From: Eledone cirrhosa
Lineage: Eukaryota
Length of the DNA stretch: 64,000 bases
Reading direction: 5' to 3'
Assembly (NCBI GenBank): GCA_964016885.1
Contig: OZ024748.1
Span: 19,096,001 to 19,160,000, forward strand
Part shown: positions 15,157-31,665 of the stretch, in pieces
How the letters are laid out: each line of letters opens with the position of its first letter
Numbering within the stretch: position 1 is the first letter of the stretch
Program-made: the position numbers and the translations under genes
Notes under the pieces: model-generated
The model's input: only the letters and a program-made list of their open reading frames with translations
What the model was told of the DNA's origin: nothing
Databases searched by the model: none

Positions 15157-15361
15157 AACGAGTAGGACCCCGATGGTTGAGCTCAAGCCGTTTCGACGGC
15201 TAATTCTGGACTAAAAAATCAGAATTAGTCCAGAATTAACCGCCGAAACGGCTTGAGCCCAGCCGTCGGGGTCCTACTCGTTCCTATTACCCACTCTACT
15301 ACCCTAAGTATTGAGTACTTTGGTGCGTTATGGTCCACCTGGTTCCTTACCACATTTCCTT

Positions 15362-15411
<50 letters not shown>

Positions 15412-15511
15412 CGAAGGAAATGTGGTAAGGAACCAGGTGGACCATAACGCACCAAAGTACTCAATACTTAGGGTAGTAGAGTGGGTAATAGCCGTCGGGG
15501 TCCTACTCGTT

Positions 15512-24511: not shown

Positions 24512-24558
24512 GTTTCTTTTCTCTTTCTTTTCCGGTTTGTTGGTGGTCGCCGACGCAG
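24512..24558 (+). promoter_or_regulatory. Probable 3' splice acceptor for the Maf coding exon (5' UTR intron)
   Basis: Polypyrimidine tract tttcttttctctttcttttcc followed by CAG at 24556-24558, 38 nt before the ATG. Confidence 0.55.
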
Positions 24559-24596
24559 ATCAAAGAGAGAAGGTGTGAATCTCGTTATATAACTCA

Positions 24597-25397
24597 ATGG
24601 AGTCGACTCAACACCTGACAGATGGATATATAACAGATTTTGATCTGGAACAACTGGAAATGTTGCCAGTTATTAAAATGGAGTCCGACAAGGACCGCTT
24701 CTCAAGCACGTGCTGTAGCAATATATCGGAGTGTTCCCAGTCGGCACCTACGAGCCCTGACGACGGCGAATCAAGCATTTCATCAGCGTCCCCTGACGTG
24801 ACCAGCTTACAGCCGCCCGTGAAAAACTTCATGGAGGAAATCTACTGGTTCACCAACACACACAGCAATCACGACATATCTCAGAATGGAGTGCTAGACT
24901 TATTTCTTAGCAACTCACCAAACCCGAATCTCGGGAGTAGCAGTCGGAGCCAATCGCGAAAGAATAGTACATCGTCCATATCTTCATCATCAACGTCCGC
25001 GTCGTCATCGTCAGTTTGCATAAAAAGGAGCTTCAAGACTCGATCGTCGCCCGATCTCGCCAAATGTGAGCTGAACGATGACGAACTGGTGTCGCTGCCC
25101 GTACGCGACCTCAACAAACGACTACACGGCTTCCCAAAAGATGAGGTGAGTCGTTTGAAACAGAAACGGAGAACGCTGAAAAATAGGGGCTATGCCCAAA
25201 ACTGCCGTTCGAAACGTATGCAACAGCGAAACGAGTTAGAGCGGACGAACAAATCCTTGCAACACCAATTATCGGTGATACAACGTCAGATTGGATTGGT
25301 CACGCGGGAAAGGGATTATTACAAAGATTGTTTTGAAAGGCTACAGAGGAAACGGGATAGCTCATTATCAAGCTCGCCCAGTCCACTAACTGAATAA
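24597..25397 (+). CDS. Maf: Large Maf family bZIP transcription factor (MafA/MafB/c-Maf/NRL/traffic jam-like), single coding exon
   Basis: 266-aa ORF with the Maf extended homology region plus basic region ([20 protein letters not shown]...[21 protein letters not shown]) and a leucine zipper. The N-terminal motifs [17 protein letters not shown] and MEEIYWF resemble vertebrate large-Maf YVNDFDL, SVPSSP and LEDLYWM. An in-frame TGA at 24576-24578 fixes the ATG. Confidence 0.96.
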
Positions 25398-25980
25398 ATA
25401 AATAGACAAATAAATAAATAAATAAATGAATAAATAAATGAATAAATGAATAAATGAAAAAAGGAAGAAATGAATTTAATAAATAAATAAGTAAATAAAT
25501 ATATTATATAATGAAGGAGGAATTTCAGTCCCCCACCACCACCACCACCAAAAAAAAAAAAAAAAAAAAAAGATATTAACAACAATGTTATAAAAATCGT
25601 ATGATTGATGATAATAAAACATAAACTGAAAAATGTTGATATTGATATATAAAAAGATATATATATATATATATTAAAAGAAATTATCATTGTTATTTCT
25701 ATCATAAATGAAGAAAAAAAACCCCGATAATAATAAGAATATAGAAACCATCTCACCTTTTGAAGTAATGAACTATATAATAAACCAGCAGCAGCAGCAG
25801 CAGCAAAAGCAGCAACAACAGCATCATGAAATATTACAGGATGAAACGTTTGTTAAAAGTGAAAGACACAAAGCCCCACATTAAAATAATAATAATAATA
25901 ATAGTATTAATAATATTAATTAACTATTACAATCATCATTATTTGTGGATATCAGCATCTTTTGTAGAATGTAATAGTTA

Positions 25981-26845: not shown

Positions 26846-26901
26846 GCATACCAATATATCTAATCATATCTGCACATCTCTCTCTCTCTCTCTTTCATTC
26901 T

Positions 26902-26977
<76 letters not shown>

Positions 26978-27019
26978 ATATATAATATAAGATCAAAAGA
27001 TGGTTAAAAGAGTTCCATG

Positions 27020-27090
27020 TATTTTATTATGCGCATTTCAAAAACAAATATCCTCATGGGATGATATTTGCGTTCTCATCAGATAAAATA
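27020..27090 (-). ncRNA. Mirror copy of the hammerhead in the left arm of the same palindrome
   Basis: Near-exact reverse complement of 27225-27295. Confidence 0.75.
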
Positions 27091-27224
27091 TGGAGACATG
27101 ATATGAAGCTTAAAAAACACTTGCGAACAGTGAAGTGTTAAATCAACATATGTTGATTTAACATATGTTAATTTAACACTTCACTGCTCGCAAATGTTTT
27201 TTTAAGCTTCATATCATGTCTCCC

Positions 27225-27295
27225 TATTTTATCTGATGAGAACGCAAATATCATCCCATGATGATATTTATTTTTGAAATGCGCATAATAAAATA
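27225..27295 (+). ncRNA. Minimal type-I hammerhead ribozyme (canonical core)
   Basis: Stem I tattttat/ataaaata (8 bp); CTGATGA at 27233-27239; stem II aaatatcatc-ccat-gatgatattt; GAAA at 27276-27279; palindromic stem III T-GCGC-A; AUA triplet with cleavage predicted after 27287. Confidence 0.8.
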
Positions 27296-27513
27296 CATGG
27301 AACTCTTTTAACCATCTTTTGATCTTATATTATTTATAATCCAGTCCATAAACTGTTGAGTGCTACTTATCCGATATTTGCATTGCTTTATTGTGCTACA
27401 ATAAAACTCACCTCCTACATTATATATATATATATTGGAAAATGTGTGAGATCCTTGGTACAGTTAGGTATATTTGAAAAAAAGGAAAAGAATGACCTCA
27501 CTTGTAGTTCTAT

Positions 27514-27784
27514 ATAATTTGATTTAATTTTATCATATTGTAATATTATGAGTTGGTAGACCTAGTAAGTTATTTGTTAACTTCGGTGGGAAGAATTTTA
27601 AAGATTCCTGGTTAACTTTGTTGGAGAACTTTTTCGCATTCACAATCGCCACTGACGAATGTGAGAAAGTTCTCCAGGAAAGTTAACCAGGAATCTTTAA
27701 AATTCTTCCCACTGAAGTTAACAAAGAACTTACTAGGTCTACCAACTCATAATATTATAATATTATAAAATTAAATCAAATTAT
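27514..27784. repeat. Palindrome of about 270 bp (arms about 125 bp)
   Basis: gagttggtagacctagtaagtt...aacttactaggtctaccaactc arms; no convincing hammerhead core. Confidence 0.8.
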
Positions 27785-27840
27785 TTAACACTACAAGTGA
27801 AGTCATTCTTTTCCTTTTTTCCAAATATATATATATAAAT

Positions 27841-27879
<39 letters not shown>

Positions 27880-28923
27880 AACACCCCCCCCCCCCCACAC
27901 ACACCCACACACACATATATATATATATACATATATATAGATATAGATATACATAATAAACAAACACGAGAAGAGTGTGCTGACCAATCCAAATCTTGCA
28001 GTCACACTAAAACCAAACCTAAAACATGAAGCTAATCGATAAAACAATAACAAAAACTATAAAATCAATACAACGATCTAATAATAAAGAAAGAATAAAA
28101 AAAACAAAATAAAATAAAACATTTTTGGGACAGAAAACAATAAATAAACAAAAAAACAACAAAAAAACAACAACACAACACCACGTGGTCAAGAAAACAA
28201 ACAAATAACACCCCACCCACCCCCAGAAAAAAAGACAAAAGAAATAAAAAGTGATAAGATAACAACAACAACAACAAGATAAATCAGCAACAAGAAATAA
28301 TAATAACAGCAACAACATTTACAGCAACAAGAAATATAACAGCAACAACAACAACATAGTACACACTCTGATAATGAAAGTGAAAGTAACTTTAATCAAT
28401 GAAACGTGAAATTGAAAAAACAAAATTGAAAAAACAAACAAACAAAATTATAACTAAAAAAACAACAACAAAAGATTATTATAAAACAACAAGAACAAAC
28501 AAGAAATGTTTAATGTCGCGATGGTATTTTTATTCCCTTCTCTCCCTCCCTAGTGATGATGGGGAGATCTCTCCCCCCTAATGATGGTGGAGAGACCCTG
28601 TTGATTTAATTGGATAACATTTGATTACATAATTACCTTCCATGGACAAGGAAATAAAAACAAATTTATACAGTAAGGACTGATTCTTCAGAAGTTTCCT
28701 TCTTCTTCTTATTTTTCTTCTTCTTCTTATCATTATTATTATGATTTTGTCACTGTTTACGTTTATTTTGTGAAATAATTTTTACTTTTTATTTGTTTTC
28801 TGCTGTTGTTGTAAAGCAGTGGCTCCCAAACTGTTTCACTACCAAAGACCTTCCAACCCTTTTTATTTTTATTTAAATGAACATTACCACGTTCTCCCAG
28901 CTACTTATAGATTGCTGTACGGC

Positions 28924-29597
28924 AATAATAATTGTTTCTACTTTTGGCACAAGGCCAGCAATTAACCCAGTGCATTACTGGTATTTTATGACTTCTACTA
29001 TAGGCACAAAGCCAGCAATTTGGGGGGAGGAGAAAGTCGATTAAATCGACCCCGCTGCATTACTGGTACTTTATTTTATCGACCCCGTAAGGATGAAAGG
29101 CAAAGTTAACGTAAAGAGACACAACTATGCCGCAAAGCAAGGTGTCCGACGCTCTACCGATAATGCCAATCCAAATGATAATAATGATTTCTACTATAGG
29201 CACAAGGCCAGTAATTTGAGGGGAGGGGAATTAGATTAAATCGACTCCAGTACGTTATTGGTACTTTATTTTATCGAGCCCGTAAAGATGAAAAGCAGAG
29301 TTAACCTTGGCGAGATTTGAACTCAGACCGTAAAGAGTCGTAACTCTATGCTACAAAGCATGGCGTCCGAACCCCTCCCGATACTGCCAATCCAATCCAA
29401 ATGATAATAATTGTTTCTACTTTTGGCACAAGGCCAGCAATTATCCAGTGCATTACTGGTACTTTATTTTATCGACACCGTAAGGATGAACGGCAAAGTT
29501 AACCTCGGCGGGATTTGAACTCAGATCATAAAGGTTTGTAACTCTATGTTACAAAGCATGGCGTCCGAACCCCTACCGATACTGCCAATCCAATCCA
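28924..29597 (-). mobile_element. Cluster of about 4 head-to-tail SINE family B copies
   Basis: Repeated ttctact..ggcacaaggccagcaatt...atcgaccccgtaaggatgaa...cgatactgccaatcc units. Confidence 0.85.
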
Positions 29598-30319
29598 AAT
29601 GATAATAATGATAATAATAATTGTTGTGTGCATACTTAGGTTATTAAAGAAAGCCCTTGAAATTCTAAACTTAAGATCAAGTTCTACCTTTACCGAATCC
29701 CTATTTGGGTGTGAACACATGGTTGGGAACCACTGTTGTAAAAAAAAAAAATTGTCATTTTTTTTTTGCCCATCCCCACATCCGCTCTGCCATATCTTGG
29801 ACAACAATTACAAAAATGTTTTGTTTTTACCGCCAAATCTTGGACAAAAACTACGAAAAGTTTTGTATTTCCCGCCAAATCTTGGACAAAAATTACGAAA
29901 TGTTTTGGCTTCTTTCCCGCCAAAACTTGGACAAGAAACAATACAGACATAGAAGCAAGAACAATAAAAATATAACAAACACACGCACACACGCACACAC
30001 GCACACACACACATACACACACACACATACACACGCACACACACACACATGTTCACACTGTTACTCATTTACCTTCCATGTAATATATAATGTAAGATAT
30101 ATGTATATATGTATATAATCACGAATAATACAAAAGAATTACGTGTATAAACACACATACACACATACATACACACACGCACACATATATTAATGTTATG
30201 GTTGTTAAGTGATAAATAACAACAAACATTTACTGATGAAATGGGTGTAGCTTCAAATATATATGAAGTAATTGACTGTGAATTCCTCTTCCGTCTGCCT
30301 CGTAGTTTGTTTCATATAA

Positions 30320-30368
<49 letters not shown>

Positions 30369-31255
30369 TATGTGTGTGTGTGTGTCTTTAATGCATAGGA
30401 ACATAGACCCTTTTATATATACGTATATGATATATTTACATATACTTATACAATCATAAACATATGTATACACAAGCACACCCACAAAAGTTCCATCTAG
30501 ATGGGCTTTATTTTGATTGGTCCATTTCGTTTTATAAGAAAAACCTCCATTACAATTGTAGTTTGTTTATATTCTAAACAGGTGTATGTCTCTTTGTTAG
30601 AGTCGATTGAACTTGACCCGAATATATAACTGATTATTTCTTACATGATTCCAAGCATAACATGGGTGTATTTCTAATAAAGTGAGGAAATATCGTACTT
30701 AAACTGAAACGTGTGTATGTGTGTATGTGTGTCTGCTTTACTCCTTCCAAATCTTGGACAAAAATGACAAAATGTTTTTGTTTTTTCCTGCCATATATTG
30801 GACAAAATTTACCAAAAGATTTGGGGTTTTTTTGTTGACAAATTTTGGACAATAAACAATAGAAATAAAATCCCAAATATCGTCGTTCAGTTTTTCTCAT
30901 CATCACCCTGTCGATAGGTATCTATTTGCTTTAATATGAGTCCTTGAAAGCCTTTTCTGGTGTTCCCTTTTGGACCAAACCCCCGGTTTCTTTCTCACTC
31001 ACGTTTTCTTGTTTCTGTAGTCATTGATCTACAGATGTTTGACTGAGAATAAACAAGTGACTTTAATGTCCTCACCCATTCTAGGAAGAAGTTTTACAAA
31101 ATAAAAAAGGGACTAGCTCCCTTTCTCGCTGTTTACATCAGTAAAACAAAATAACAATTAAAACCAGCCAACCCTTGCCAACATAATTTTCTTGAAGGAT
31201 ATAGCTTTAGAGCTATAAGCTAAAAACCTTCTTGAGCACTGTCCACTGTGATTCA

Positions 31256-31665
31256 TAATTGTTTCTACTTTTGGCACAAGGCCAGCAATTACCCAGTACA
31301 TTACTGGTACTTTATTTTATCGACCCCGTAAGGATGAAAGACAAAGTTAACCTCGGCGGGATTTGAACTCAGAATGACAAGGGCCGTAACTCTATGCGTC
31401 AAAGCATGGTGTCCAACCCTCTACCAATACTGCCAATCCACCGCAAATTCAGTGATTCATATAATTGTTTCTACTTTAGGCACAAGGCCAGCAATTACCC
31501 AGTGCATTACTGGTACTTTATTTTATCGACCCCGTAAGGATGAAAGGCAAAGTCAACCTCGGCGGGATTTGAACTCAGATCGTAAAGGGACGTAACTATG
31601 CTGGAAAGCATGGCGTCCGACCCTCTACCGATACTGCCAATCCACCGCAAATTCAGTGATTCATA
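31256..31665 (-). mobile_element. Two tandem SINE family B copies
   Basis: Two full units, each followed by ccaccgcaaattcagtgattcata. Confidence 0.85.

Follow-up and report, generated by a model that had tools for sequence, protein, structure and literature searches.

The window analysed here is a 64,000-nt stretch of the Eledone cirrhosa genome, and all positions given below refer to it. It contains the coding sequence of a Maf bZIP protein and, 1,585 nt beyond the end of the stop codon, an inverted repeat that carries a hammerhead motif on each strand (Table 1). Both the identity of the gene, which is supported by a match to PF03131, and the presence of the inverted repeat had been recognised in a first-pass annotation; the repeat, which had been placed at 26983..27332, was found at 26982-27333. 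The extent noted at that time holds for the core repeat and not for its limits, since the right arm continues to ~27422. The left arm stops at the short end; the right arm is long and runs ~89 nt further, into a (TA)n run. Comparison of the left arm (26982-27149) with the right (27150-27333) shows 6 substitutions in 168 nt and one indel.

Several other repeats were seen in the window. The second palindrome directly adjoins the first, has a tail of ~33 nt on one arm, and contains a CTGACGA..GAAA arrangement at 27652 without a usable stem II; as a GIY-YIG-like frame lies upstream in L094, its family is probably another Penelope-like family. A palindrome of ~200 bp with (TA)n at its centre occupies 15285-15490, and related sequence was found beside copies of the family described below in L006 and L028. 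At 2574-2602 there are CTGAGGA..GAAAC motifs on both strands, with no stem I of at least 4 bp in the scan, which are possibly another decayed inverted pair. Clustered copies of a ~200-bp repeat, which we take to be an octopus-type SINE, are found at 28913-29640 and 31240-31654.

Table 1. Positions of the palindrome, its parts and its neighbours in the window
Feature	Position	Strand	Basis or remark
Splice acceptor preceding the Maf coding sequence	24556-24558	+	contig of run X1 breaks off at 24559, leaving a loose end
Maf bZIP coding sequence, 266 aa and stop; neighbour, outside the element	24597..25397	+	PF03131, E 1.9e-29
Maf 3' UTR piece in spliced run X1, furthest point seen	25685..25774	+	contig depth 64.3, against 68.3 on the coding sequence
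Left target flank, (TA)n microsatellite	26900..26981	.	sequence
Left arm: pLTR copy of Penelope-like element, 5'-truncated, stops at the short end	26982..27149	-	
Hammerhead motif of type I in the form of the family majority, with C-G at stem II pair 6; cleavage predicted after 27028	27020..27090	-	
Turn: self-complementary CATATG (27147-27152), then a 15-nt local duplication (27153-27167)	27147..27167	.	
Right arm: 5'-truncated pLTR copy	27150..27333	+	repeat search
Hammerhead motif of type I with the minority variant at 27270, giving CxA at stem II pair 6; cleavage predicted after 27287	27225..27295	+	
Tail of ~89 nt, on one arm only	27334..27422	+	
Right target flank, (TA)n	27422..27436	.	
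Second palindrome, other repeat family, separate insertion, one long and one short end	27437..27829	.	1,680 candidates

Extent of the Maf transcript

Run X1 contains spliced Maf RNA, since its contig ends at the splice acceptor and the loose end matches a unique genome site, 6.7 kb upstream of the window, behind which stands a GTAAG donor. The upstream Maf exon, about 31 kb away, ends at G000:C8:19089286 (seen together with window:24559 and L090). In this run the Maf 3' UTR extends to at least 25774, and the RNA passes at least 10 AATAAA/ATTAAA hexamers up to that point; after 25880 the next such hexamers stand at 27287 and 27400, both of them inside the element. A candidate poly(A) site near 25914, obtained by extrapolating the X1 contig (30 nt after the ATTAAA at 25880), was discarded because extrapolation of X2, a DNA contig, leads to that end as well. 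Reads of the element over 26850-27820 are not assignable to the Maf-side locus, as the family is abundant both in X1 and in DNA-like runs. The low summed X1 depth at the turn (16.5) carries no weight here, since hairpins assemble badly and all four runs may lack the insertion. At 25269 all four runs have C where the reference has T, so that they carry a different haplotype or the reference is in error.

Hammerhead motifs on both strands

The conserved hammerhead core (CUGANGA, GAAA, NUH) is present, and a descriptor scan confirmed the motif on both strands, with the core at 27233 (+) and 27082 (-). The elements described earlier for the plus strand were all located: the 8-bp stem I (27225-27232), CTGATGA (27233-27239), GAAA (27276-27279) and, on the stem III side, ATGCGCAT (27279-27286) leading to the AUA triplet, the predicted cut and stem I' (27288-27295). 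A strict hammerhead descriptor had 0 matches when the window was dinucleotide-shuffled 200 times. A looser descriptor (stem I of at least 5 bp) had 0.015 matches per shuffled window (200 shuffles) and only two in the real window, which are the two motifs of the palindrome. An Rfam search gave no hammerhead family at the motif among 34 matches to E 10, and at the palindrome gave only microRNA-hairpin matches, all below threshold.

The first-pass annotation had called this motif intact and canonical, with a 10-bp stem II, a description that does not survive closer inspection. There is a G·U at 10.1, a mismatch follows three stem II pairs, and stem III is a palindrome of the dimer type; the 10-bp helix is the distal part of stem II and does not adjoin the core. 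Between the core and this distal helix the plus strand has G·U, A-U, A-U, CxU, G·U and CxA, and the minus strand has the same order with C-G rather than CxA as the last pair. A canonical monomeric hammerhead requires a G10.1-C11.1 pair closing a continuous stem II of ~4 bp together with a stable stem III, and neither is found here. Stem III is indeed self-complementary, as had been noted, but within a monomer it pairs over only 2 bp, with a predicted P of 0.0.

A short palindromic helix III within the pLTR, such as ATGCGCAT, is a feature of the dimer-type hammerheads of Penelope-like elements (PLEs). With two sense copies, a double hammerhead is predicted at -28.9 kcal/mol, versus -9.0 kcal/mol for two monomers, and this fold lies above the computed dimer optimum of -37.9 kcal/mol. 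In the isolated motif stem I is predicted with P 0.7-0.86. The proximal stem II is predicted with P ~0.02 on the plus copy versus 0.64-0.68 on the minus copy, and the A at 27270 in the Maf-sense copy is the minority form, present in 9 of 79 unique rows. By these folding predictions the Maf-sense copy is the weaker of the two.

The arms belong to an abundant Penelope-like family

A repeat search with the right arm returned 634 candidates, with 46 matches in the 40 that were scored and with the best full-arm matches 95-98% identical. The element is not specific to Maf: a 20-mer of the hammerhead core has 1,894 exact copies in the genome (949+945; control 0), and the same palindrome with the same turn, searched as the exact 26 nt around CATATG, is present at 18 loci (control 0). 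Copies of the family share common 3' ends and are truncated on the 5' side. Going upstream in the longest copies, we find a 3' UTR of ~1 kb and then a GIY-YIG-type frame and an RT frame, and the arm was present at all 16 loci fetched around RT matches.

The arrangement of the longer copies is that of EN+ PLEs, in which pLTRs stand in partial tandem around the ORF. The arm flanks the ORF on both sides in L059, which belongs to the window's own subfamily and whose two pLTRs are at 92-95%, and in L062, where an 821-aa frame is enclosed by two hammerhead-bearing pLTRs of a sister subfamily that are 86-88% identical to the arm. In L034 the arm passes straight into the ORF's start, and the tail sequence runs on into the ORF 5' end in L034, L059 and L062. 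Uninterrupted frames of 715-908 aa adjoin the arm in L059, L062, L063, L065 and L066, with the RT and, at the C terminus, a GIY-YIG in a single ORF, as in EN+ PLEs; the unit measures ~3.9 kb, including the 1-kb 3' UTR and an N-rich linker. On this sequence evidence, both arms are 3' ends (pLTRs) of a Penelope-like retrotransposon that is abundant in the genome. The sister subfamily (L062, L063, L065 and L066, on G000:C5, C18, C1 and C4) has many near-identical open frames of 818-908 aa and is probably the youngest branch of the family.

A search with the RT piece gave 38,445 first-look candidates, a number that includes related families. Neither the RT nor the EN piece was recognised in a Pfam search, and a PDB sequence search with the RT piece returned nothing significant; the EN assignment comes from motifs together with an Atlas lead (a GIY-YIG cluster, score 0.94, with the family on 35% of members). 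The motifs read in the ORF are RLRW, SDKT, FDIASYY, GASDS, YRDD, CxCX5C, CxxC..E and N..CxH.

These motifs allow the parent element to be placed. In the passages of PMC8557442 used here, the Hydra clade is defined by an RWK-type motif, DKT (for DKG), a CxCX5C linker, CxxC and CxH beside the E and the N, and the lack of CCHH. The family carries RLRWI or RLRWT, in which the third residue of RWK differs, and SDKT; CxCX5C, CxxC..E and N..CxH are present in L059 and L062, and there is no CxxC between the two EN motifs in the ORFs beside the arm. Its ends abut (TA)n at most of the loci shown, in line with the insertion preference of this clade, and its protein, compared by eye, closely follows the Hydra alignment in the supplement of that paper. 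Judged by its motifs, the parent element thus appears to match the Hydra definition. Naiad was ruled out since the EN is C-terminal here, and Neptune/Nematis since CX2-5CxxC, looked for in L059 and L062, was not found. A non-LTR retrozyme was also rejected: no same-strand pair lies within 5 kb among the first 100 matches listed, and the arm is contiguous with the ORF.

A recurrent mismatch in stem II

To describe stem II across copies we used a pattern demanding no stem II pairing, which, run on the loci examined, gave 23 stem II types. Pair 4 was mismatched in all 23 types (21 C·pyrimidine, one U·U and one C·A); pairing held at pair 5 in 21 types and at pair 6 in 19 types. Several unrelated stem II sequences arrive at the same pair-4 mismatch pattern through different base pairs, and in the sister subfamily the changes in stem II preserve pairing via wobble. 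At the level of sequence comparison, this pattern and the wobble-preserving changes support an RNA structure under selection in the parent elements. The mismatch after three stem II pairs is not drawn in the Hydra hammerheads of file S2 of PMC8557442, the table to which this comparison is limited. Other hammerhead families, with ATATATAT or a similar stem III, were observed in L009, L019, L022, L028, L032, L040, L071, L074 and L081; they have the same pair-4 mismatch and often lie in neighbouring (TA)n runs.

Form and origin of the insertion

Counted by hand, the first 100 listed core matches include 16 pairs that stand head to head within 3 kb, which extrapolates to ~300 such pairs genome-wide, and a single tail-to-tail pair. 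The family has two 3' ends, corresponding to ~27333 (short) and ~27422 (long), and (TA)n follows both. A short arm is joined with a longer one in 14 of the 15 same-turn loci fetched (of 18), including the Maf-side palindrome. An automated pass over all loci examined, in which some complex loci count more than once, gave long with short in 26 of 33 pairings, the other 7 being 4 long with long, 1 short with short and 2 of other kinds. Copies that are inverted, 5'-truncated and tailed on one side are known from the literature on PLEs and are a feature of EN+ elements.

The palindrome is very probably a head-to-head pair of 5'-truncated Hydra-type PLE 3' ends in (TA)n, likely unrelated to the control of Maf, with hammerheads that are predicted to be masked. 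Of this, the sequences show the match of the arms to the pLTR that flanks an RT-GIY-YIG ORF elsewhere, the presence of one short and one long end, and the recurrence of this layout at many loci.

How such pairs arise is less certain. Purified PLE protein has been described to cut and extend both target strands, with two RT start sites bounding the tail (PMC11167929, in the part that describes these reactions). We propose that the element protein would cleave the (TA)n target on both strands and extend the two ends, with each extension beginning at its own fixed start site on the element RNA, the two sites lying ~89 nt apart. The two cDNAs would then stop early near CATATG and anneal or join through this self-complementary hexamer, leaving the 15-nt local duplication. 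We lean towards this extension of both ends. A different route to the same structure, in which one cDNA folds back and primes itself at CATATG, or a second template is joined, with no priming at the second end, is possible though doubtful: self-priming was proposed for such palindromes by Arkhipova 2013 (PMC3846280), the palindromic hexamer turn is reused at 18 loci, and rare variants are common to both arms at several loci, but simple fold-back copying should give equal ends, while in most pairs a long end stands opposite a short one, and pairs that are 3-4.6 kb apart also obey this rule. At the Maf-side locus the arms share no non-majority variant, so that a single template for both arms gains no support there.

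A-to-I editing of templates was considered as a source of the arm differences and rejected, since A/G and C/T account for 25 each among 90 differences in 21 pairs. The single A>G in X1, at 27247, is also present in the DNA runs.

The hammerhead itself probably serves the parent element, where its cut in pLTR-ORF-pLTR transcripts would fall ~200 nt upstream of the ORF. Such cleavage may involve a dimer formed via the ATGCGCAT palindrome, or the help of protein; hammerhead cleavage assisted by the element protein is reported in the relevant part of PMC11167929.

The palindrome and Maf

In either direction of transcription the antisense arm is made before the hammerhead. The full palindrome is predicted to fold with 172-175 pairs; a fold made to include the hammerhead is less favourable by +94.5 (+) or +91.6 (-) kcal/mol. 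The first-pass annotation had suggested that a Maf transcript could here either fold into a masking duplex or cleave itself. The duplex is borne out by these predictions. The cleavage is not, since the antisense arm is transcribed before the ribozyme, stem III depends on another copy in sense orientation, and the variant of the plus copy collapses its proximal stem II. With the antisense arm leading on both strands, the RNA would instead adopt a 170-bp hairpin; given this order, the 172-175 pairs and the cost of 92-95 kcal/mol, self-cleavage in RNA crossing the palindrome is predicted to be unlikely.

We therefore regard the proposed switch, in which Maf read-through RNA either cleaves itself after 27287 or is masked and Maf is thereby regulated, as extremely improbable. 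All core nucleotides are present on the Maf strand, the isolated motif is predicted to form stem I, and a ribozyme in a host 3' UTR has a precedent in the rodent Clec2 genes. Against it stand the order of the arms, the penalty on the plus strand, and the predicted weakness of stem III and of the plus-strand proximal stem II. In addition, animal PLE hammerheads cleave weakly even as dimers, in the experiments of PMC4209133 drawn on here, or need the element protein, in those of PMC11167929.

A passive effect on Maf is possible, since the next hexamers after 25880, at 27287 and 27400, occur inside the element. The transposon-derived insertion would in that case now be part of the Maf 3' UTR and act as a double-stranded hairpin (a substrate for editing, small RNA or retention) or through the poly(A) signal at 27400 in the tail. 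The passage of Maf RNA beyond at least 10 hexamers to 25774 and the very stable predicted hairpin fit this idea, which we nevertheless consider very unlikely: with the ~300 pairs extrapolated for the genome, chance should place a few of them near a gene end, and the palindrome has decayed like its relatives, with no sign of selection found. The place of the palindrome 1.6 kb behind Maf is likely due to chance.

Discussion

The palindrome downstream of Maf is a truncated, inverted insertion of a Hydra-type PLE in the ordinary, usual form of such insertions, one scar among hundreds, and the case for a ribozyme switch in Maf is removed. With its long open frames, its long tail and its strong rule of one long and one short end, the family provides a clean test system for two-end priming, which is an unsettled step of Penelope transposition, and it is also suited for testing the role of the stem II mismatch.

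A broader reading would join these points: Hydra-type PLEs would use two fixed start sites on their RNA to prime the two ends of a single cut, their commonest small insertions would disarm their own ribozyme, the insertion at Maf may have been taken up into the 3' UTR, and the hammerhead would be a distinct variant. Disarming would follow from the two-start geometry, which puts an antisense copy ahead of the hammerhead either way, so that small insertions disarm the ribozyme in host transcripts. If this reading were true, the Maf 3' UTR may have come to include the hairpin, or the AATAAA that the tail carries at 27400, and the C·pyrimidine mismatch after three stem II pairs would mark a hammerhead variant kept across several families. 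As a whole we judge it unlikely.

Comparison with known systems

The closest known relatives are the Hydra-clade PLEs Hydra-1_Obim and Penelope-13_HM (Craig et al. 2021, PMC8557442). As far as the sections of that paper used here describe them, they share with the family a C-terminal GIY-YIG EN with no CxxC inside it, RW, DKT, CxCX5C, (TA)n targets and a type I hammerhead near the 3' end with a self-complementary stem III. Penelope-13_HM, like the Maf-side locus, has an inverted 5'-truncated copy, with the hammerhead listed on both strands. The family described here is distinct from Hydra-1_Obim, its hammerhead being unlike the one listed for that element, and it differs from the Hydra elements as described there by its ~3.9-kb unit (<3 kb described), its 1-kb 3' UTR, its N-rich linker, its ~89-nt tail (30-40 bp described) and its long, mismatched stem II.

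The animal PLE hammerheads of Cervera and de la Pena 2014 (PMC4209133; review PMC6765202) are, in the portions considered, also of type I and located in pLTRs, with a palindromic helix III that is thought to act as a dimer; their copies are mostly truncated, with some opposite-strand pairs 100-700 bp apart. The G10.1-C11.1 pair, which is highly conserved in that set according to PMC4209133, is replaced here by G·U (A-U in the sister subfamily). Moreover, there is no extra nucleotide between 9 and 10.1 here, and stem I has 8 bp.

The PAc Poseidon element of Anolis (Frangieh et al. 2024, PMC11167929) belongs to another clade and, in the part of that work relevant here, resembles this family in having two ends that bound a tail downstream of the hammerhead and in its AT-rich targets; its hammerhead overlaps the ORF start, whereas the predicted cut here lies ~200 nt upstream. 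The animal non-LTR retrozymes, in the portion of bioRxiv 10.64898/2026.07.22.740005 that we draw on, share a type I hammerhead in a short repeat related to PLE pLTRs. The family described here, in contrast, forms no tandem array, and other copies of it are contiguous with an RT-EN ORF.
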